A DNA stretch of 64,000 nt, from positions 10,558 through 74,557 of the IMG/VR virus record IMGVR_UViG_3300009448_000012, one strand, 5' to 3'. This stretch comes from a virus. How positions within the stretch are numbered: position 1 is the stretch's first letter; every line of letters starts with the position of its first letter. The translations under genes and the position numbers were made by a program. Positions 25,572 to 63,637 of the stretch are shown here, in pieces. The notes under the pieces were generated by a model. That model saw only the letters and a program-made list of their open reading frames with translations. It was not told where the DNA came from and did not search any database.

Positions 25572-28500
25572 TTATTCCCCGCGTTTCGCGGCTTCGAGGT
25601 TTTCCAGCGCGGCCGTGATCTGATCACGGACATCGTTGAGCAGTTTGTAAGGATCGACGCCCACGCCGGCGGCGTCGATGTTGGTCTTGATCAGCTTCAG
25701 GTCAGCTTCGACGCCGCGCATCAGCTCGCGCCATTGCTTGATCACGACGGTCTTAAGCGACGGCGCGGCCGCCGGCTTGGGACGGTTCTCCGGATCGAGC
25801 GACCGCGCCTTGACGACGCCTTCAGCCGTGCGGTGCGTGACGCCGCCGGCGATCTTCTTCCACGCCTTGCCCGTCCAGGTGTAAACGTCGGTCAGGTTGT
25901 TTCCGATGTCGCGGATCTCGCATGCGCCGACCTCGGTCCCGGCGTCGATCGGCACGGCGCCGGGATGAATGACCGCTTCGACTTCCTTCCACGTCAGGTC
26001 GTCGACCAGCCGATCGACGACGCCGGTGTTTTTCCATTCATCGACCGCGTAAAGCCCGTCACCGGTCGAGACGGTGAACTTCACGCTGAACGTGCTGGTC
26101 GGTGACGGCTCGACCTCATCAGGCATGTCGACGTCGACCGCGTCGCCGGCGCGCGGCGGCGCGGTCAGGACGAACCCCTTAGCGGCCCAACGCTCGATCT
26201 GTTCTTCCGTGGGTGCGGCGAGCCGGGACACGTCGCCCATTCGTTGCGCCGCCTGTGCGACCAGCTCGACCGCGTCCCAATAGGTCGCCGAGACCGGGAA
26301 ATTCTCGCCGCGCATGGTCAGCCATTGCCCCTTGGTCGCGCTCCAGCGTTGGACGCTCCAGCCGCCGGCGGGCTCGATCAGGTTCGGCATGATCCGAAAC
26401 GTGCCTTCGTGCTCGGGAACGTTGGTCCCGACCGGCATGGTCACGGTTTCGATGCGAACCGGCGGCTGTTGCGCGACGCTGGCGGCGTAAATCTGGTCGA
26501 AGGTCTCGGTCGGCGGGACATGCGCCGCGACGTTTGCGTGTGGCGGTTGTTCGGGCTGGTCAGCCTGCATCGTGCAATCCAGTGCGTGTTGACGGCGCCG
26601 GGCTTCCGAAAGCTGTTCAGCGACGTCGGCGAAGTGTTGGGGGTGTCGTTTCAGGTAGTGGATCGCGTCCGCCCGGTGGGCACTGTTCCCTTGCTGCTCG
26701 CCGCCGTTGGGTCCCTCGCCGGTGTGGCGAAGGTGATGATCGAGCGCTTCGAGACACGACAGGGCGGTCGCGATCGCGTGGCGGCCGTCCTGAAACCGGT
26801 TGGGCTTCGGCACGTCGCCGATCGGCGTCGTCCGCGTGGCGATCGCCAGCGCTTCGTCGATCAGCTCGATCGCGCTCGGGACATATCGCGATATCATGCT
26901 GTCACCGCGCAGGCGGCGAAGGACCTCGGCGACCGCATCGAGGCGCGTGTTATTCGCCTCGATCATGCCGTCGCGAGCATCGACCGGTTCATCGTTGATC
27001 ACGCTCACGGTTTGGTCGCTGATGATTTCGTCGATCAGCACCATCGCCGAGCCGATCGCCGGGTCGTCGCTCCGGACACTATTCAGGATCTCGATCACGC
27101 GGGTCAGCCGGCGGACCGTCAGACCATCAGGTTCGTCGGCGAATGGTTGCAAGCCTTGCAAGCCGCGATAGATCGTGTTTTCCGACCAGCCGGCCGCGAC
27201 CAGCCTGGAGACGATCGTGTTCAGCGCGGCCGTTGCGTGGCTGTCGCGTCTCCATCCGAGGACCGCGCGGCACTGCTCGGCGAACGCGGTCAGTTCGGGA
27301 CTATCCATTTTCCAGATCAAGCCGGTGTCCTGACCGTTCGGGTCGAGGATGCGGCGCGGCAGATCGTAACCAGGCGAAGCGCTGGCGATCTCGTTTTCAC
27401 CGCGAACGATCGTGATCGCCTGACCGACCCTGTGACCATATTTCACGATCTCGCCTTCGGCCTCGGCGACGGTGTCGAACTGGCGCCATGGCCACAGCTC
27501 CGGCTCGCATTCCGATATCACCGCCGACCAATGTCCGCCGACCGGTGTCGCGCGCCAGCGCTCGATCTCGAACATGCCGTTCGTCGACGACTGGCGGACA
27601 TGAAACGCACCGTCCATGATCCCGGCGACGGTCTCGGCGTCCTCGCCGGTGAGCAGTGCCGGCACATCGTCGGCGCTGATCAGCTCGACCGCGTAAGGGG
27701 CTTGTTCGCTGGACCAGTCGCCGAACGCTTGGATCGCCGAGGCGCGCGTATCGAACGACCTCGACAGCACGCGGTACATGACCGGGAAGCCGGTTTTCTT
27801 GTGAATGGCGGACCAGCCTTCGACGTCGTCGTGGATGAAGAAGAACCACAATCCGTTGTAGGGCGATTGCTGGATCTGAAACATCACCGGCGTCGGCTCG
27901 ACCGCGATGTCGAAGTCGGGACCATTGGCGCCACGGAACGCGCTGATCGCGCGAAGCGCCTGTTCGCGGCTGACGAAGGTCGTCGGGCGAAGCGACGGTT
28001 CATCCGAGATACGCACGACCCGCTTGTCATAGCCGTCGTAAGGCGCGCCGATCCAAACGTATCCGCCTTGGTCGAGCCGCTGAATCAACCAGGACCCGGC
28101 GGCGTTCAGCACGATCCGCGCGGTCACGGTCGGGCGGGCGGGCACATCGCGCGGCGAGGCGGGCGGCGTCGGTGTCATAGGCGGTTCGCCGGCGGGCTGG
28201 TTGTCGGCGATCCATTTTTCCGGCAAGCCGCTGATCCCCACGGTCAGCGGCACGTCGAGCATGAAGCGGTCTTTCATGCCGATCCGCGCGGCGTATCCGT
28301 GGATCGCCTTTTCGGTCGCTTCGTAGTTCGACCGAACCAGCAAGCCGTCGACCATGATGGTCCACCAGTTGCCGGCAAGGTCCTGTTGCTGGATCGCGCA
28401 GTCGGTGTTGATCATGCTTTTATCGCCGGCGCGCGAGAACCGCACGATCCGGAACAGCTTGTCGGGACCCTGGACGATCGGCGCGTGATCGCCGGGAAGG

Positions 28501-28712
28501 AAGACCATCACGCCGGTTTTCGCCTTCGTCGCGGCGCGGTGTTTCTCGATCGCGGCGAGCGCGGCCGGGCTATCGGGGAAGGTTCCCGACAGCACGCTGT
28601 CGCTGTGCGGCGGGACCCAAACGCCGGCGGCGTTCCGTTGCTCGATCGCGATGGCGTAAGTCACCGGATCGCCGATCGGCTTGATCCGATATTCCTCGGT
28701 GTGCTGTGTCAT
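25572..28712 (-). CDS. 1046-aa hypothetical protein with repeated beta-beta-beta-alpha-like modules
   Basis: Recurrent [IV]xxxxxxGxW...F.[ST]..xA..AI pattern. Confidence 0.8.
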   Translation of the reverse strand: MTQHTEEYRIKPIGDPVTYAIAIEQRNAAGVWVPPHSDSVLSGTFPDSPAALAAIEKHRAATKAKTGVMVFLPGDHAPIVQGPDKLFRIVRFSRAGDKSMINTDCAIQQQDLAGNWWTIMVDGLLVRSNYEATEKAIHGYAARIGMKDRFMLDVPLTVGISGLPEKWIADNQPAGEPPMTPTPPASPRDVPARPTVTARIVLNAAGSWLIQRLDQGGYVWIGAPYDGYDKRVVRISDEPSLRPTTFVSREQALRAISAFRGANGPDFDIAVEPTPVMFQIQQSPYNGLWFFFIHDDVEGWSAIHKKTGFPVMYRVLSRSFDTRASAIQAFGDWSSEQAPYAVELISADDVPALLTGEDAETVAGIMDGAFHVRQSSTNGMFEIERWRATPVGGHWSAVISECEPELWPWRQFDTVAEAEGEIVKYGHRVGQAITIVRGENEIASASPGYDLPRRILDPNGQDTGLIWKMDSPELTAFAEQCRAVLGWRRDSHATAALNTIVSRLVAAGWSENTIYRGLQGLQPFADEPDGLTVRRLTRVIEILNSVRSDDPAIGSAMVLIDEIISDQTVSVINDEPVDARDGMIEANNTRLDAVAEVLRRLRGDSMISRYVPSAIELIDEALAIATRTTPIGDVPKPNRFQDGRHAIATALSCLEALDHHLRHTGEGPNGGEQQGNSAHRADAIHYLKRHPQHFADVAEQLSEARRRQHALDCTMQADQPEQPPHANVAAHVPPTETFDQIYAASVAQQPPVRIETVTMPVGTNVPEHEGTFRIMPNLIEPAGGWSVQRWSATKGQWLTMRGENFPVSATYWDAVELVAQAAQRMGDVSRLAAPTEEQIERWAAKGFVLTAPPRAGDAVDVDMPDEVEPSPTSTFSVKFTVSTGDGLYAVDEWKNTGVVDRLVDDLTWKEVEAVIHPGAVPIDAGTEVGACEIRDIGNNLTDVYTWTGKAWKKIAGGVTHRTAEGVVKARSLDPENRPKPAAAPSLKTVVIKQWRELMRGVEADLKLIKTNIDAAGVGVDPYKLLNDVRDQITAALENLEAAKRGE

Positions 28713-48451: not shown

Positions 48452-48525
48452 TGTCGTTCCTTTGGTTGCGGTTCAAAAAGCTCAGTACGGTTCATATAGG
48501 CTCGGATGCGTTACGCTTGCAAGCG

Positions 48526-48978
48526 CTAATTTCGTTTCAGAAACAGCGGTTCAAGTTCGTCCCATAAGTGACGGATCGGCAAGCATAAAACCGGCGTGCA
48601 ATCCTTCTGCTCAAGGTAACGCTGGAGCAGGGCGCCGAGGTCCTTGTGATCGCACAACCCGCGAAAATGATCGGTCCGCATGAACCAGCCGGGCATTGGG
48701 TCGACGCTGGTCTTGTGGCGGACCAGCGGCCGGATCTCGTTCAGCACGACCAGGACGCTTTCGGCGTCGGTCTCGGCGAGGTGGAGCGTCACGGCGAGGT
48801 GATACAGAAAGGCATGCCAGCGCATCCACGACGTCGGGCGTGTGTCGGACGATGCGTCCCACGGCCGGATCGTTCCCTTCTGGTACAGGCGGGCGATCAC
48901 GTCGGCGACGTCCATACTGTCGCCGTGCCGCTCGACCAGGAACGCGCGCAGGTCTTGAAAGCCGATCTCGGACAGCAT
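48526..48978 (-). CDS. hypothetical protein
   Basis: 150-aa ORF with protein-like composition. Confidence 0.6.
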   Translation of the reverse strand: MLSEIGFQDLRAFLVERHGDSMDVADVIARLYQKGTIRPWDASSDTRPTSWMRWHAFLYHLAVTLHLAETDAESVLVVLNEIRPLVRHKTSVDPMPGWFMRTDHFRGLCDHKDLGALLQRYLEQKDCTPVLCLPIRHLWDELEPLFLKRN

Positions 48979-48985
48979 GGCGGAC

Positions 48986-49219
48986 TCACTTTTTCAGGAA
49001 GACGGTCGGACGATAGGCGCCGTTCGACACCGCCCAAACGACGCTTTCGACCTTGAAGGTCGTCCCGACATATCGCCCGGTTCCGCCGGCGGGCGGAAGC
49101 TGAATTCGCACGCCGTCACCGACGCGCGGCACGGTGGACATGATGGCGCCAACGTCATGGAATTCGGGCACACCGTCGCGGGCGCCGTCGCCGATGTACA
49201 CCAGTTCGACAGTAATCAT
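48986..49219 (-). CDS. hypothetical protein
   Basis: AAGGA RBS; PRVGDGV motif. Confidence 0.6.
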   Translation of the reverse strand: MITVELVYIGDGARDGVPEFHDVGAIMSTVPRVGDGVRIQLPPAGGTGRYVGTTFKVESVVWAVSNGAYRPTVFLKK

Positions 49220-49237
49220 TTGGCGGGTTCCTTCGAT

Positions 49238-49862
49238 TTGAACTATTGGAGATGGGTCCGAATAGTTTTATGAACGAATTGTGGCGAAACCGAAAAGTTT
49301 GGACGTGCTCCGAACTTTGGTTTTAACTATTGGTCGGTTGTAGGAAAAGTTCGGTGCTACCGAAAACTATCGTTTGAACTTTTCCGACCTGCTCCGAATA
49401 GTTCGATTGACGGCAACTTACTGTCACGAACTTTTCGGTCGACCTCCGAACTTTTCCGTTTCGCCACAATTCGTTCATAAAACTATTTGGTCGACCTCGG
49501 AAAAGTTCGGACTGCATTCAAATAGTTTTATGAACGAATTGTGGCAACTCCAAACTTTTCGGACCTGCTCCAAACTTTGGAAATCCGTTCATGTAGATGA
49601 ACGGAAGTTTTCGTCGGTTGTAGGAAAAGTTCGGTGCTACCGAAAACTATCGTTTGAACTATTGGCGACGGCTCCGAACTTTTCGGTTTCGCCACAATTC
49701 GTTCATAAAACTATTCGGATGCGCTCCAAACTTTTCGGACCTGCTCCAAACTATTGCCCGAACTTTTCGTCGGTTGTAGGAAAAGTTCGGTGCTACCGAA
49801 AACTGTTCGATTAGCGGCAACTTGCTGTCACGAATTGTTCGGAGCAGGTCCGAACTTATTTT
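49238..49862. repeat. non-coding array of 25 quasi-palindromic 13-bp boxes (CCGAA-NNN-TTCGG consensus) with nested direct and inverted repeats
   Basis: Box spacing is always 20 or 32 bp; 47-bp inverted repeat at 49257 and 49673; 36-bp direct repeat three times. Confidence 0.9.
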
Positions 49863-49943
49863 GAACACAATTGACCCGCCCGCGCGGCGCTGCTTCCACG
49901 CGGGCGGACCCTGGTCGCCATAATCGGCCGGCGACCAGAACCG

Positions 49944-51179
49944 TTAGACGACCGGGTCAGCTTCCCATGCGGTCCGCGTCGCGTTCGGCCGGAAGCCGGG
50001 CGTCGCTGGCCAGCCGGCGGCCGCCGCGAGTACGGCGCTTTCGGCCTGGATCTGCGCGGCCGTGCGAGGCGCCGGCGGCGTCAAGAACCCCGGATGCGGG
50101 CTCACCGGCGGCGGGGGCGGATTACCAGGGGACGCAGTCGTCGAGCCAAGCGGATCTGTAGAAGGGGCAGGGACCGGCGACGCGCCGGCCGGGACACCCT
50201 GGACGCCCGCACCGGCTAAAGGGTCAGAAGGGTAAGCAGTGGTCGCACCACCAGCGGGCGGCGTGGTATGGGTCGGCGCCGATGTAGCCAAAGGAACCGG
50301 GGACGCGAGCGAACCGGGCGGTGTCGGTAATGCAGCCGCAAGCGGGGCAGTGACCGTCTGTTCCAAAGGGTCCGGGTCATAGCCGCTCCGATCGGCCTTC
50401 AGCCGGTGTCCGGGATAGTGCTGAACCCCGGCATCGGCCGCGATCTTGGCGCTGATCTGTTCCTGGGTCATCACCGGCGCGACAGGCGCCACGGGAGCGG
50501 GCGGCGGCGGTGCTGGTGGTGCGGGCGGCGTGGGGCTCGGCACGGCCGGAGCGCCGCCGGGCGTGGTATTGCCGGCGACTGGCAGGGCGCTGGCGCCGGG
50601 CGGCAACGTCGCCTGATGCTGCGCGAACAGTTGCGCCGCTGTCGGGCCTTGCTGGATCACCGGACCATAGCCGAGCAGGCGGACGCAGTTGGGATTGAGA
50701 TAGATCCCCGCGTTCTTGTCGGTCAGCATGTTGCAGGCCATCGCGCCGGCGACGTCGACGTAAAATCCGCACTCGATCAGCGCCGGGTCGATCGGCTGGT
50801 CCTGCGCGTTGGCGCATTTGATCGGGAACAGCGACGTCGAGAACCGGAAGATCCAGCAACCTGCGAAGCCTTCGCGGTTCCGGTTCTTTTCGCTGTCGCC
50901 GTCCTCAATCTTCCAGGCGAAGTTCGGCGCGCCGAGGCCCTGGTTGATCTGTGCCATGATACCGGCGTTCTGCTGATAGCCGCTGACCGCAACCTGTTTG
51001 GCCAACTGGATCACCGGCATCACGCGGGCGTCGGTCTTGGGCACGGCGACGCCGAAGAAGGCGGTCGGCTTCTCACGCTCGCGACCCTGCTGATCGGTCG
51101 TCTGAACGGTATGAGGGTCGCCCATGACGATCCGGCCGGGCGGCAAATAAAAGGGCGTGTTCTGTGTCTTAGGCGCCAT
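49944..51179 (-). CDS. single-stranded DNA-binding protein (DUF2815-like) with long Pro-rich tail
   Basis: PGRIVMGDP, WKIEDGD, GIYLNP; adjacent to the DUF2800-like gene. Confidence 0.75.
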   Translation of the reverse strand: MAPKTQNTPFYLPPGRIVMGDPHTVQTTDQQGREREKPTAFFGVAVPKTDARVMPVIQLAKQVAVSGYQQNAGIMAQINQGLGAPNFAWKIEDGDSEKNRNREGFAGCWIFRFSTSLFPIKCANAQDQPIDPALIECGFYVDVAGAMACNMLTDKNAGIYLNPNCVRLLGYGPVIQQGPTAAQLFAQHQATLPPGASALPVAGNTTPGGAPAVPSPTPPAPPAPPPPAPVAPVAPVMTQEQISAKIAADAGVQHYPGHRLKADRSGYDPDPLEQTVTAPLAAALPTPPGSLASPVPLATSAPTHTTPPAGGATTAYPSDPLAGAGVQGVPAGASPVPAPSTDPLGSTTASPGNPPPPPVSPHPGFLTPPAPRTAAQIQAESAVLAAAAGWPATPGFRPNATRTAWEADPVV

Positions 51180-51183
51180 GTGA

Positions 51184-52317
51184 TTATGATCCTGACTTCA
51201 TTGCAGCTTTGAACAGTTTCGCGATTGCGGATTGTGTCGCGGGAACCAGCTTCCGCCCTGCTGGGTCCCGTTTTACGACCATAGGGTCATTCGTAATTCG
51301 GACGTCGGCACCTTCCCTTTCCATTTCCGCCGGCGTCTTGGGGACTTGCTTATAAGGGTCGACACCGGTCAGCATGCCGACGATATCCATCGGAAGCGCG
51401 AATTCGCGGTCCTTGGTCCGCTGCTCGAACATCCATCCGGGAATAAACTCGCCGCGCAGCATGCGCCCTTCGACCTCGGCGGCGACGCCGGACTTGCGCG
51501 CCTTGATCAGGGCGCCGGCGATCTCCAGGAACGAGGCTTCGGCGCCGAGCGCGGCCGCGCTCATTGCTTCCATGCGGCCGCCGCGTATGCCTTCGAAGAT
51601 GGTGTAAATCGAGGTCGTCAGCGCCTCGCACCGCGCGCGGCCGCCGCACTGTGTACACCAGGGACCGACTCGACCTTGGGGATCGCCGGCGAGCGCGGCA
51701 AAGGCTTTGCTCGCAAGCCAATTATACCACGTCGTCAGCTCCGGTTCATCGACCCGCCAGTCGCGAATCTTCCCGTCCGGATGGTGCGGGCGCGGCTGAT
51801 AGATCGTCATGATCACATCGTCGTGCTTTTCCGGGTCGAAGGTCGCGAGCGCTTCGCAGATCAGTTGCGGATTGCCCGTGACCTCGATCGGCAACCAGCC
51901 GTATTTCAGTTCGACGATATGCAGGGTGGACGAATTCGCGATCACCATGCTGTCCAGTCGTCCATTGATGGACAAATGCGGAATGCTTACCTTGACTTGC
52001 GTGTGGACTACCTCGCCGAGCGACTGGCAGTAATCGACATATCCCTGGACGTGCTGGACCATGTCGGCGGTCACGATCCAGCCGTTCGGCGCGGTCTCGC
52101 CGAAGAACTCGCCGGCGCTGACCGCGTCACCGCGCAGCACGCCGTTCGCGACCCAATCGGCCGCCTGACCTTCTCGCCGGGCGTCGGTGTCGTTCGGGTC
52201 GTCGTCGATCGGCGGCGGCAAACCGTCGAGCGCGCCGGCGGGTCCTCGGCGGGACAGTTGCGCGGTCAGCGCGCAGTTCGTCCATAAATGGGCGGTCGAA
52301 GGTGTCAACATTTCCAA
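51184..52317 (-). CDS. DUF2800 / Cas4-like PD-(D/E)XK nuclease
   Basis: PS.AH.W..C; GRLD...ELKYG; NPQL; IYQPR; GPWCTQC.....C. Confidence 0.85.
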   Translation of the reverse strand: MEMLTPSTAHLWTNCALTAQLSRRGPAGALDGLPPPIDDDPNDTDARREGQAADWVANGVLRGDAVSAGEFFGETAPNGWIVTADMVQHVQGYVDYCQSLGEVVHTQVKVSIPHLSINGRLDSMVIANSSTLHIVELKYGWLPIEVTGNPQLICEALATFDPEKHDDVIMTIYQPRPHHPDGKIRDWRVDEPELTTWYNWLASKAFAALAGDPQGRVGPWCTQCGGRARCEALTTSIYTIFEGIRGGRMEAMSAAALGAEASFLEIAGALIKARKSGVAAEVEGRMLRGEFIPGWMFEQRTKDREFALPMDIVGMLTGVDPYKQVPKTPAEMEREGADVRITNDPMVVKRDPAGRKLVPATQSAIAKLFKAAMKSGS

Positions 52318-60718: not shown

Positions 60719-63085
60719 ATGCTTAATCCGGTACCGGTCAAAATGCAAGCGGTTCCAAAAGGGTTCGAGAAGTATAAGCAATTCATAAACTGGCGACTGG
60801 TTCCAGATAAAAAAAAACCCGGCAAATTCAAAAAGCTTCCGTGCAATAGCAACGGAACGATTATTTCCGCACATGACCCGACGCAATGGATGACCGCCGA
60901 ACAAGCTTGCTTGTCCGAATACGGAATCGCGTTCGTCTTCACCGCACATGACCCCTTTTGGTTCATCGACCTCGACGAAGCGTGGAACGGGTCGTGTTGG
61001 TCGGAAATCGCCGATTGGTGCTTCCGGTGCTTCCCTGGTGCGGCGCTGGAGATATCGAACAGCGGGACGGGCCTGCATCTGTTCGGCGCGGGCTCGCACA
61101 GCTTGCCGGCGGATCACGGTTGCAAAAATATGTCCGCCGGCATCGAGCTATACACCCAAGGGCGTTTCGTCGCCCTGACGGGCACCAGCGCGGCCGGGAA
61201 CGCGTTTCTCGACTATAGCGACCGGCTGGCGACCTTCGTGGTCCAGGCGCGCTTACAGCCGCGTGACACGACCCTGGAGGACCTTGGGGACGGTGATGCG
61301 GTCGATCCGCGCTATACGGGGCCGGCGGATGACGACGAACTGATCGCCCTGATGCTCGACAGCGTCGGGTCGGTCAAAACGCAGTTCGGGTCGAAGGCGC
61401 ATGTCCGCGACCTTTGGGAAATGAACGTGCCGGTGCTCGAAGGGTGCATGTCGGCGCCGTCGCGCCAAGACGGCGTCAAATTCGACTGGTCGAGCGCCGA
61501 CGCGTCGCTGATGTGGCATTTGAGTTTCTGGACCGGTCGCGACCGCGATCGCATGGTCCGGCTGTTCGAGCGCTCCAAGCTGTACCGGCCGGACAAATAT
61601 GAGGGCAAGGGCGCCTATCGGCTTCCCCTGGTCCTGAAGCAAGGCTTCCGCAACACGGCCGTGTACGACCGCCCCAAGCCCGGCACGGCGATGCAGCCGA
61701 TCGAGCCGGGCGCGGTCGCACCGTCGCAGCGCGGCGGCCGCTCGACCATGGACCTCGCCGAGCAGATCCAGCACTTCGACGGCTGTTGGTACATCCAGGC
61801 GTCGCACAGCGTCATGTTGCCCGATGGGCGGATCGTCCCGCCCAAAGTGTTCGACGTGGTCAAGGGCGGGCACAAGTTTCAGATGCAATATGACAACGGC
61901 AAGCCGACGACCGAGGCGTTCACCTGCTTCACGCAAAGTCGGATGCATACCTTCAACAGTGCAATTGATACGTGCTTTCGCCCTGATCGTGAACCCGGCG
62001 CCCTGGTGGATGGTCGGATAAACACATGGCGCGCGCCTGTCGTGGTCGAGACGCCGGGCGACATCACGCGGTTTCTGGAGCATGTCGCCCGCATGATCCC
62101 GAACCCGGTCGACCGCTCGATTCTGTTCGCCTATATGCAATCGCTCGCGCGCAATCCGGGGAAGAAATTCCAATGGGCTCCGGTGATCCAAGGCGTTCCC
62201 GGAAACGGCAAATCGCTGTTGATCCGGGTCCTGTATTACGCGATGTCGAAGGAGTTGTCGCATCTGCCCAAGGCGTCGCAACTCACCGAAAAATACAATT
62301 CGTGGATGGCCGAACGGATTTTTATCGGTGTCGAGGAAATCAAAGTCACGGATCGTCGTGAGGTGCTGGAGGACCTTAAGGACGCCGTGACGAACGATTG
62401 GATCGAAATTCGCGGCATGCATCGTGAAAAGAAGATGGCCGATAATTTCACCAATTGGCTGTTTTGCACGAACCATAAGGACGCAATTCCCGTCGATCGT
62501 TCAGAACGCCGATATGCGATCTTTTACACCGCTCAGCAAACGGTCGAGGATCTGGTTCGCGACGGCATGACCGACGATTATTTCGTCTCGCTTTACGATT
62601 GGCTGAAGGCGGGCGGTTATGCGGCCGTTGCGCACTGGTTGCGCCATGGCGCGATCGAGGCGGTGAAATATGATCCGGCGACCGTTTGCCAGCGCGCGCC
62701 GCACACGTCGTCGACCGCCGAGGCAATCGGCGTTTCGCTCGGTCGGGTCGAGCAGGAAATCATGGAAGCGGTCGACAACTGCGAACCCGGCTTTAAGGAC
62801 GGCTGGATAAGCACAGGCGCTGTCGCGCGTTGGTTGCAACAGCGCGGCGCGCGCGATGTCAGTGCTCGCAAAATGGGCGAAATCCTTAAATCACTTGGAT
62901 ATACGCACGCTTTCAAATCGTCGGTGAAGGTGATGGAAGAAAACGGCGTTCGAGCGCACATCTATCGAAAGAACGATTCATTCCAGCACGGCGATCAAAA
63001 CGATTTTCTAATCGCTCAAGGATATTCTTCAACATTGCGAAGCGGGTTCACTGTTCAGCCTGGAGCGGACCCGCTGGCGTCCTGA
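60719..63085 (+). CDS. primase-polymerase fused to a D5-like/DUF5906 helicase
   Basis: FIDLD, EISNSGTGLH, IELY..GRFVALTG; Walker A GVPGNGKS; IGVEE; CTNH; RRYAI. Confidence 0.92.
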   Translation: MLNPVPVKMQAVPKGFEKYKQFINWRLVPDKKKPGKFKKLPCNSNGTIISAHDPTQWMTAEQACLSEYGIAFVFTAHDPFWFIDLDEAWNGSCWSEIADWCFRCFPGAALEISNSGTGLHLFGAGSHSLPADHGCKNMSAGIELYTQGRFVALTGTSAAGNAFLDYSDRLATFVVQARLQPRDTTLEDLGDGDAVDPRYTGPADDDELIALMLDSVGSVKTQFGSKAHVRDLWEMNVPVLEGCMSAPSRQDGVKFDWSSADASLMWHLSFWTGRDRDRMVRLFERSKLYRPDKYEGKGAYRLPLVLKQGFRNTAVYDRPKPGTAMQPIEPGAVAPSQRGGRSTMDLAEQIQHFDGCWYIQASHSVMLPDGRIVPPKVFDVVKGGHKFQMQYDNGKPTTEAFTCFTQSRMHTFNSAIDTCFRPDREPGALVDGRINTWRAPVVVETPGDITRFLEHVARMIPNPVDRSILFAYMQSLARNPGKKFQWAPVIQGVPGNGKSLLIRVLYYAMSKELSHLPKASQLTEKYNSWMAERIFIGVEEIKVTDRREVLEDLKDAVTNDWIEIRGMHREKKMADNFTNWLFCTNHKDAIPVDRSERRYAIFYTAQQTVEDLVRDGMTDDYFVSLYDWLKAGGYAAVAHWLRHGAIEAVKYDPATVCQRAPHTSSTAEAIGVSLGRVEQEIMEAVDNCEPGFKDGWISTGAVARWLQQRGARDVSARKMGEILKSLGYTHAFKSSVKVMEENGVRAHIYRKNDSFQHGDQNDFLIAQGYSSTLRSGFTVQPGADPLAS

Positions 63086-63402
63086 TCGGATGTGACGGCT
63101 TCAGGACGCTATTAGGACGGATGGTTCAGGACGTGCAAAAACCCTTACATTTCCTATACTTATATCTTCTCCGTCCTAATGGTCCTAAAAAAGAAGGGGT
63201 ATATATGAGGAAGGATAGAGGAAATAATAACGATAATAACAATGGATAGATGGATAGATGGATAGATGGATAGATGATGGTTTGAAGGGGAAAAAGGTAG
63301 GGGGGAAAGGGCCGATTAGGACATCAGGACGCCTTTGCGATAAGGTGTTGAAATATAACGGTTTTCAGGACGTCCCGATTTAAAACGCAAAATATCAGGA
63401 CG
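63078..63402. repeat. candidate replication origin: 10 TYAGGAC(G) boxes around an AT/purine-rich core with (ATGGATAG)x4
   Basis: Boxes at 63078(-), 63101, 63112, 63126, 63172(-), 63181(-), 63316, 63324, 63365, 63395; tandem repeat 63242-63273. Confidence 0.65.
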
Positions 63403-63409
63403 GGTTGTC

Positions 63410-63637
63410 ATGCTGAAATGGTATATCCTGGGTATAGTAGCGGTGTTTGTTTCAACCTTACGTTGGGAAAACGATCGCGGTTGGGGCGTGATCATCTCCT
63501 ATGTCGCCCTAACCATCGTGGGTTATTGCGCTATCATGGTCCTGTGGAGGCTGAAGCGTGGATGGAACAATAGGCATGGGGGTAGGACCAGGGCGAAACG
63601 CCTGCCCTGTGATCATCATGAGGAACATGGGCTATGA
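63410..63637 (+). CDS. small two-TM membrane protein
   Basis: Two hydrophobic segments; ATGA overlap with the HNH gene. Confidence 0.5.
   Translation: MLKWYILGIVAVFVSTLRWENDRGWGVIISYVALTIVGYCAIMVLWRLKRGWNNRHGGRTRAKRLPCDHHEEHGL

Follow-up and report, generated by a model that had tools for sequence, protein, structure and literature searches.

A lattice of oriented repeats in a variable island of a groundwater phage: a candidate binding platform for a sequence-specific protein

What does a groundwater phage do with 625 non-coding bases of short, regularly spaced repeats? The array in question lies in a window of 64,000 bases, the whole stretch of DNA analysed here, which covers bases 10558-74557 of a 74,557-bp (74.5-kb) IMG/VR record of the linear class that is ~91% complete. 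The array contains 29 copies of an oriented core, RAACTWTTSG, each of which lies inside a quasi-palindrome, TCCGAA-NNN-TTCGGA, and the cores occur in both orientations. Centre-to-centre gaps between neighbouring cores take only three values, 12, 20 or 32 bp, and their sums are always 52 bp; with the sequence written out at 52 bases per row, the boxes fall into columns. Autocorrelation, which the original prediction had named as the check on periodicity, yields a strong signal at lag 52 (z 12.9 versus a shuffle maximum of 4.1), and lags 104, 156, 208 and 260 and the 20+52n series also peak. Both flanking genes are encoded on the minus strand, and read in this direction most units consist of a 15-nt palindrome, TCCGAAAAGTTCGGA, followed by ~5 variable bases.

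How many boxes does the array contain, and what is conserved in them? All 25 boxes listed in the original prediction were found at the coordinates given. The total is 29 rather than 25, however, and the gaps include 12 bp in addition to the 20 and 32 bp described, because four extra, degenerate copies (starting at 49322, 49362, 49642 and 49758) split some of the 32-bp gaps into 12 + 20 bp. The boxes had been described as quasi-palindromic, and dyad flanks are indeed present, but these are not the best-conserved part. In a frequency matrix of the boxes, the information is concentrated in a 9-10-bp core, and the palindrome-forming CC/GG flanks are weaker. The central C-T of the core is near-invariant (28/29 and 27/29), and the best-conserved element is the asymmetric RAACTWTTSG. 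"Oriented cores" is a better description of the boxes than dimer palindromes. The AACTWT/AWAGTT core occurs 25 times in a 640-bp region versus 12 times in the remaining 74 kb, and a position weight matrix (PWM) derived from the boxes detects 22 sites in the complete phage record, all of them within the array. The AT-richness noted earlier was confirmed: the array has a GC content of 0.43 versus ~0.63 for the phage genome, and positions 49201-49600 form the lowest-GC stretch of the window (0.43).

The segments between the 9-nt cores come in three lengths only, 3, 11 and 23 nt. The 11-nt linkers belong to three sequence types that are mutually unrelated, and the 23-nt linkers likewise comprise three unrelated types: type A with four copies, type B with two and type C with a single copy that is a perfect palindrome (Table 1). 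The orientation of type A alternates along the array, precisely as had been predicted for a 25-bp block. Because unrelated linkers have equal lengths, the spacing itself appears to be selected; this is the strongest sign that the spacing is maintained, and it fits a function at the DNA level. Inter-core segments also recur in sequence (GGAGCAGGTCC, three copies of TCGGTAGCACC and three of CTACAACCGAC), and variation is limited to ~5 nt. At a larger scale, the longer block that had been reported to repeat near 49333, 49613 and 49769 is seen as part of an 84-nt family, whose further copies are 83% and 71% identical to the reference copy.

Table 1. Coordinates (in the window) of the repeat array, its internal elements and the surrounding genes and signals
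Feature	Position	Strand	Remarks
Mosaic repeat array	49238..49862	.	29 oriented cores; 12/20/32 lattice; 52-bp sum; 12 units; GC 0.43
Type A linker block, copy 1	49261..49285	+	TTTTATGAACGAATTGTGGCGAAAC; holds 7/9 DnaA-box-like TGTGGCGAA
Type A linker block, copy 2	49463..49487	-	Inverted
Type A linker block, copy 3	49521..49545	+	27-nt perfect inverted repeat with copy 2
Type A linker block, copy 4	49691..49715	-	Inverted; 47-nt arm 98% complementary to copy 1 region
Type B linker block, copy 1	49401..49431	+	GTTCGATTGACGGCAACTTACTGTCACGAAC
Type B linker block, copy 2	49805..49835	+	
Type C linker	49584..49605	.	Perfect 9-bp palindrome TCCGTTCAT-N4-ATGAACGGA; ATGAACG common to type A
84-nt higher-order repeat, reference copy	49325..49408	+	Further copies 49605-49688 and 49761-49844
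Two GC-rich hairpins just past SSB stop	49873..49938	-	No clear T-run
Gp2.5-like ssDNA-binding/annealing protein (SSB) gene	49944..51179	-	411 aa; phrog_7011, E 5e-51
DUF2800 / PD-(D/E)XK exonuclease gene	51184..52317	-	
Island gene 1	48986..49219	-	77-aa beta-rich ORFan immediately downstream of array; RBS GAAGGAA
Island gene 2	48526..48978	-	150-aa all-helical ORFan; one remote homolog in 1.8e9 representatives
Promoter-like site closing the island	48493..48522	-	TTGCAA-N18-TATATG; also in L013 and L016

Do the boxes share one face of the double helix? At 10.4 bp per turn, all box centres fall within -55 to +28 degrees (resultant 0.91), and neighbouring boxes are in phase to within ~55 degrees. 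The long-range fit to one face falls to 0.32 at 10.5 bp per turn, and A-tract curvature with a 10.4-bp periodicity is absent in the array. We therefore claim local phasing only. The helical phasing put forward in the original prediction is thus robust only between neighbouring boxes; over the length of the array, the fit exists only at exactly 10.4 bp per turn.

The phage encodes a family-B-type DNA polymerase (phrog_1252), two helicases and a 788-aa primase (phrog_1829), and the gene upstream of the array was correctly recognized as that of an SSB, which is Gp2.5-like. Right after the primase gene, window positions 63085-63420 are origin-like, with at least six copies of TCAGGACG/TAGGAC, four tandem copies of GGATAGAT, an AT-rich stretch and a strong GC skew. 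The origin candidate that had been placed at 63.1-63.4 kb accordingly carries iterons of its own, which are different from the array; the two regions have no motif in common. Elsewhere in the window (25572-28712, minus strand), a 1046-aa protein contains ~8 tandem small domains of the beta-strand-plus-helix type and belongs to no Pfam or PHROG family. No protein of the phage exceeds ~43% identity to a cultured-phage protein. A tyrosine integrase was not found in the record, nor were prophage relatives among 185,579 species genomes; the phage appears to be lytic. The locus was found letter-identical in two groundwater DNA metagenomes from two studies, and no instability is therefore seen; no RNA run is among the datasets listed as containing it. 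In the metagenome contigs of those two samples, the array is broken into short unitigs. A blastn search of the locus against 50,697 phage records gave no match, and a scan of IMG/VR for two boxes 20 bp apart gave a single chance match, in coding DNA.

What do related phages carry at this position? SSB homologs at 45-58% identity exist, and the island downstream of SSB was compared in three metagenome loci (L013, L014 and L016), with about 20 closer SSB homologs left out. The gene order exonuclease, SSB, polymerase is kept in the sister loci, and the stretch between SSB and a conserved promoter-like site varies among phages. In the window, this stretch holds the array, then the 77-aa gene and then the 150-aa gene. 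In L013 (3820-4812), it holds an AT-rich insert (GC 0.3) that encodes an 85-aa protein and a T5orf172/MUG113 (GIY-YIG-like) protein and lacks an array, which suggests a mobile or homing element. The array type of the window is absent from all three relatives compared. The promoter-like site (TTGCAA/TAGACA-N18-TATATG) recurs near 4830-4860 in L013 and near 4268-4300 in L016, precedes a small acidic Thr/Glu-rich protein and forms the downstream border of the island. The early promoters of the window (40469 and 41014) differ from it and consist of TTGACT, a spacer with TGAGCACRAGTGAGC and TATGAC. Judged from these gene neighbourhoods, the array locus is a swappable accessory island, which would place the array outside the core replication machinery.

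The other two sister loci use the same slot for arrays of another kind. L016:2050-4270 (Ga0070694_100012388) contains an array, a 195-aa gene, a 276-aa gene and a second array, with 8 + 5 units, and L014:3660-4325 (Ga0307499_10002275) contains an array of the same kind with ~11 units and the 195-aa gene, after which the contig ends. Each unit has perfect 8-10-bp inverted arms, the sequence of which differs per unit, and a constant interior of 35 nt (34 in two L014 units) that is divided into 11 + 13 + 11 nt; the central 13 nt are conserved and read UACCGAUAAGGUU or UGCUGAUAAGGCU. The 276-aa TasA-like protein (L016:3141-3971) matches NF052498, "TIGR-Tas system RNA-guided endonuclease", with E 1.8e-21 at 77 bits, which is below the curated 100-bit cut-off, and it has further, weak matches to the model of the IS110 RNA-guided transposase and to a transposase family of PHROG. 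No family was found for its 195-aa partner. The L014 and L016 arrays fit the stem-loop TIGR architecture (Faure et al. 2025, PMC12045711; Xu et al. 2026, bioRxiv 10.64898/2026.09.09.750476), and on the basis of their sequence we classify them as stem-loop TIGR arrays. Their tigRNA spacers have no tandem target in the phage beyond chance (a mean of 4.6/20 mismatches, equal to shuffled spacers). Is the array of the window also a TIGR array? This assignment was rejected: a search of the complete 74.5-kb record with the Tas model NF052498 yields nothing at E<=10, variable spacer pairs are missing and the cores lie in both orientations. Some similarity exists between the TIGR loop repeat UACCGAWAAGGUU and the box CCGAAAAGUU of the window, and this 8-nt likeness, CCGAAAAG, may be a coincidence. 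Given that sister phages use the hot-spot for TIGR-Tas, the natural role of which is still open, this position has the look of an island devoted to conflict or regulation.

Which protein might recognize the array? The two genes that follow it have coding-like GC3 values. Their products match no NCBIfam, Pfam or PHROG family and have essentially no homologs, and their structural models (Atlas and AlphaFold2) are of low confidence, with a pLDDT of 41-55. The genomic locus of the single remote homolog of the 150-aa protein was looked for and not found. A relationship of the 150-aa protein to O-like HTH_36 proteins was rejected at an hhalign probability of 0.1%, and neither HTH_36 nor Phage_rep_O has a match in the phage record. 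LytTR regulators bind sites with the 9-bp consensus [TA][AC][CA]GTTN[AG][TG], repeated at ~21 bp. The core AAAGTTCGG fits this consensus, and no LytTR domain was found in the phage.

Related designs are present in bacteria. When 185,579 species genomes were scanned for pairs of boxes with a 20-bp separation, 16 loci were returned. Three of these, from three phyla (L024:6440-6580, L025:3400-3560 and L037:7150-7260), contain 10-bp phased arrays of TTCSGAA heptamers, flanked on one side by a divergent HTH_36/Phage_rep_O-like winged-helix gene and on the other by a conserved gene of 165-246 aa (motif ERSIVNWCQPN), in mobile elements with Replic_Relax, IS66 and a restriction enzyme. The TTCSGAA arrays and the O-like gene probably constitute an undescribed iteron/initiator module, and their adjacency suggests that this type of half-site is used in protein-bound iteron arrays.

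Another locus, L031, led to an Acidobacteriota MAG (G001, BP_59) of 7.7 Mb, in which the box YCCGAA-N3-TTCGGR occurs 17 times versus 3 for the reversed control. The loci of this MAG (L031 and L040-L056) carry no fewer than 13 tandem arrays, all intergenic and made of palindromic units of 20 or 21 bp (CCGAA-N3/4-TTCGG type), with 7-21 copies per array, several sub-families and super-periods of 40, 42 and 63. Some units are near those of the window, namely CTCCGAAAAGTTTGGACCCG and GAAAGTTCGGAGCCGTTCCA, the latter of which has a 15-nt sequence, AAAGTTCGGAGCCGT, in common with the window. A BLAST search of the array against the MAG gave 8 weak matches (best E 6e-4), and the window PWM applied to ~40 kb of the MAG loci gave 8 matches in four arrays and 0 outside arrays. 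Most of the sub-families have the design in common with the window but not the core, which makes a single common host binder doubtful. The box is enriched in some relatives of the MAG as well (18 versus 4 in G009). With respect to a RAYT link, the palindromes that flank the Y1 genes of G001 and G009 are GC-rich and of another kind, and the boxes are absent nearby. A 21-bp tandem array of G009 (TTCCGGAGCGCTCCGGAAGCG, ~9 copies; L058:2959-3144) lies ~1 kb from a Y1 transposase gene. A coding role for the 21-bp bacterial arrays looks unlikely: several frames are open, but the translations resemble wrong-frame products. No description of such arrays in Acidobacteria was found in the literature. 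The chromosomal look-alikes allow two readings, in which the phage either recruits or titrates a host protein or carries a member of a low-function, satellite-like repeat family; the sponge for a host regulator that was among the initial suggestions gains some support from them.

We tentatively propose that the array serves at the DNA level as a phased platform with many sites for one sequence-specific protein, encoded by the host or by the island, a reading that we consider plausible, if short of probable. It draws on the fixed spacing over unrelated linkers, the compact oriented core, the lack of RNA-type compensation (see below) and the protein-associated analogues. The array would act as double-stranded DNA that offers 29 close and regular sites to one DNA-binding protein, which would recognize the core RAACTWTTSG in either orientation. 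Because neighbouring sites lie on approximately the same helical face, bound copies could touch one another and build a continuous nucleoprotein coat of ~600 bp. The type A, B and C linkers may serve as sites for further factors. The binder would be one of the two ORFan proteins encoded just past the array or a host protein, and in the latter case the array would recruit or titrate the host protein, as a sponge, during infection. The scaffold for a protein that covers one DNA face, as put forward in the original prediction, remains the best reading in view of the lattice kept across unrelated linkers and the lack of RNA compensation, but its dimer palindromes describe the boxes less well than oriented cores do.

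Could the array instead be a selfish or structural satellite? A REP/BIME-like palindromic cluster might have grown by slippage, duplication and inversion, perhaps after the capture of host DNA, and would exert generic effects at most, such as stabilization of the SSB mRNA 3' end, transcription pausing or gyrase binding. The BIME-like mosaic of palindromic units in both orientations with few fixed-length linkers fits such a history, as do the few recent duplicates (including the 47-nt arms and the 84-nt copies), the location at the 3' region of an operon gene in an island that sister phages fill differently, and the similar tandem arrays and the enriched box in the Acidobacteriota. We nevertheless regard this origin as somewhat unlikely, since the equal lengths of unrelated linkers point to selected spacing, the array is single-copy in the phage, the Y1/RAYT genes of the MAGs are flanked by other palindromes, and the sequence is identical in the two groundwater samples from two studies. 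An RNA-level function is unlikely, too. By analogy with the TIGR arrays that L016 and L014 hold at the equivalent site (with a TasA-like gene in L016), read-through from the SSB operon might generate a long structured RNA or processed units, which would be guide-like or would divert an RNA-binding protein, in the manner of a decoy or sponge. The resemblance of the TIGR loop repeat to the box is in line with this possibility, as is the minus-strand orientation of both flanking genes. The two hairpins past the SSB gene may be either a weak terminator or an mRNA-end stabilizer, and because they lack a clear T-run, transcription would probably continue from the SSB operon across the array into the two next genes; a sigma-70 promoter scan found no promoter inside the array or in the L014 and L016 arrays. 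Both strands fold far better than shuffled sequences (z -28 and -19), but a good fold is the automatic outcome of inverted repeats. The mismatches in 13 inverted-repeat pairs are mostly not of the wobble type (24 wobble-type, 14 on the plus strand and 10 on the minus strand, versus 68 others), and there is no preference for one strand, which argues that no RNA structure is preserved by compensation. Against Rfam 15, the array matches no family at the gathering score, and the only hits, to miRNA-precursor models far below gathering, reflect long hairpins. Moreover, the record contains no Tas/Nop gene, the variable parts of ~5 nt and the recurring linkers do not provide guide-like spacers, and processed RNAs are not expected to need strict unit spacing. 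For the large non-coding RNA also considered at the outset, TIGR guide-RNA arrays in the same slot of relatives are a precedent, but positive support is nil.

Replication offers another explanation, in which the array is a second or auxiliary origin or a replication-control locus, with initiator-bound iterons and with host DnaA at the type A blocks. The array occupies the most AT-rich part of the genome, within the replication and recombination module, and contains iteron-like repeats in both orientations, and similar half-site arrays lie beside lambda-O-like genes in other mobile elements. Each type A block includes a DnaA-box-like sequence: three of the four carry TTCGCCACA or its complement, which matches 7/9 positions of TTATCCACA, a consensus that may not be that of the host, and the fourth carries the shorter TTGCCACA. 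However, these four sequences are copies of one block and do not constitute independent evidence. Sister phages with the same replisome genes lack the array (L013 has none, and L014 and L016 have TIGR arrays), the phage encodes no initiator-type gene and has a more classical origin-like site at 63.1-63.4 kb, and at least 13 chromosomal look-alike loci cannot all be origins. The second origin of the original prediction is weakened by the array-free sister phages and the missing initiator gene, and we consider it improbable. As a long shot, the array and the two ORFan genes could together form a new "array plus small protein" accessory system in the TIGR-Tas hot-spot that acts in inter-phage or phage-host conflict, and the 20/21-bp arrays of Acidobacteriota could represent, on the cellular side, an array-based system that has yet to be described. 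The array might then act as a decoy, at the DNA or RNA level, for a sequence-specific DNA-binding protein (possibly RNA-guided) of a competitor or the host, which it would sequester, or alternatively as a nucleoprotein structure that marks or shields the phage DNA.

If the array is a protein-coated platform, as we tentatively favour, few arrays of binding sites seen in lytic phages would match it in size and regularity, and its 12/20/32 lattice is unusual; in function, it may stand in for a DNA binder of the RNA-guided kind. The look-alikes in the Acidobacteriota MAG provide a first host lead for this uncultured groundwater phage and point to an uncharacterized class of bacterial tandem palindromic arrays.

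How does the array compare with known repeat systems? It shares with TIGR arrays the slot that they occupy in L014 and L016 and the use of short quasi-palindromic repeats, with a half-unit of ~20 nt. TIGR units, however, contain two variable 8-12-nt spacers that are flanked by box C/D and located between edge/stem and loop repeats, and the array of the window lacks these elements. In general organization, the array resembles the injection-stop region of the lytic phage T5, a large non-coding segment in which direct and inverted repeats are nested.

Plasmid centromeres, such as F sopC (12 x 43 bp), R1 parC and pSK41 parC (20-bp repeats), are comparable in that the array, too, comprises twelve fixed-length super-units that each contain a short inverted repeat, and in that a small dimeric protein, encoded alongside, could cover it. 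Unlike centromeres, the array has no partners: the phage record contains no integrase and no match to AAA_31 (ParA), ParB_N or StbA_N (ParM), which tells against the centromere-like site of the original prediction.

Further parallels are found among iteron arrays and REP/BIME elements. Iteron arrays (lambda ori and its O protein, P1 incA/incC, and P4 ori/crr) contain many 17-22-bp sites with internal dyads, which are about two helical turns apart and occur in both orientations. The array of the window is of this type by virtue of its phased ~20-bp repeats in an AT-rich non-coding stretch within the replication module. Unlike iterons, it contains 29 sites in 625 bp, far above the usual number, on a 12/20/32 lattice with three special linkers, and unlike iteron origins, it is accompanied by no initiator gene in the phage and is missing from sister phages that share the replisome. 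REP/BIME elements of enterobacteria and pseudomonads resemble it in their extragenic palindromic units of alternating orientation and their few linker types of fixed length, and a related family is scattered in a bacterial chromosome, that of the Acidobacteriota MAG. The units of the window are, however, 13-15 bp rather than 35-40 bp long and are found at one locus in the phage with no RAYT association, and the units of the MAG form direct tandem arrays, unlike those of REP/BIME elements. On balance, the array is best classed with binding-site arrays of the iteron/BIME-like kind.
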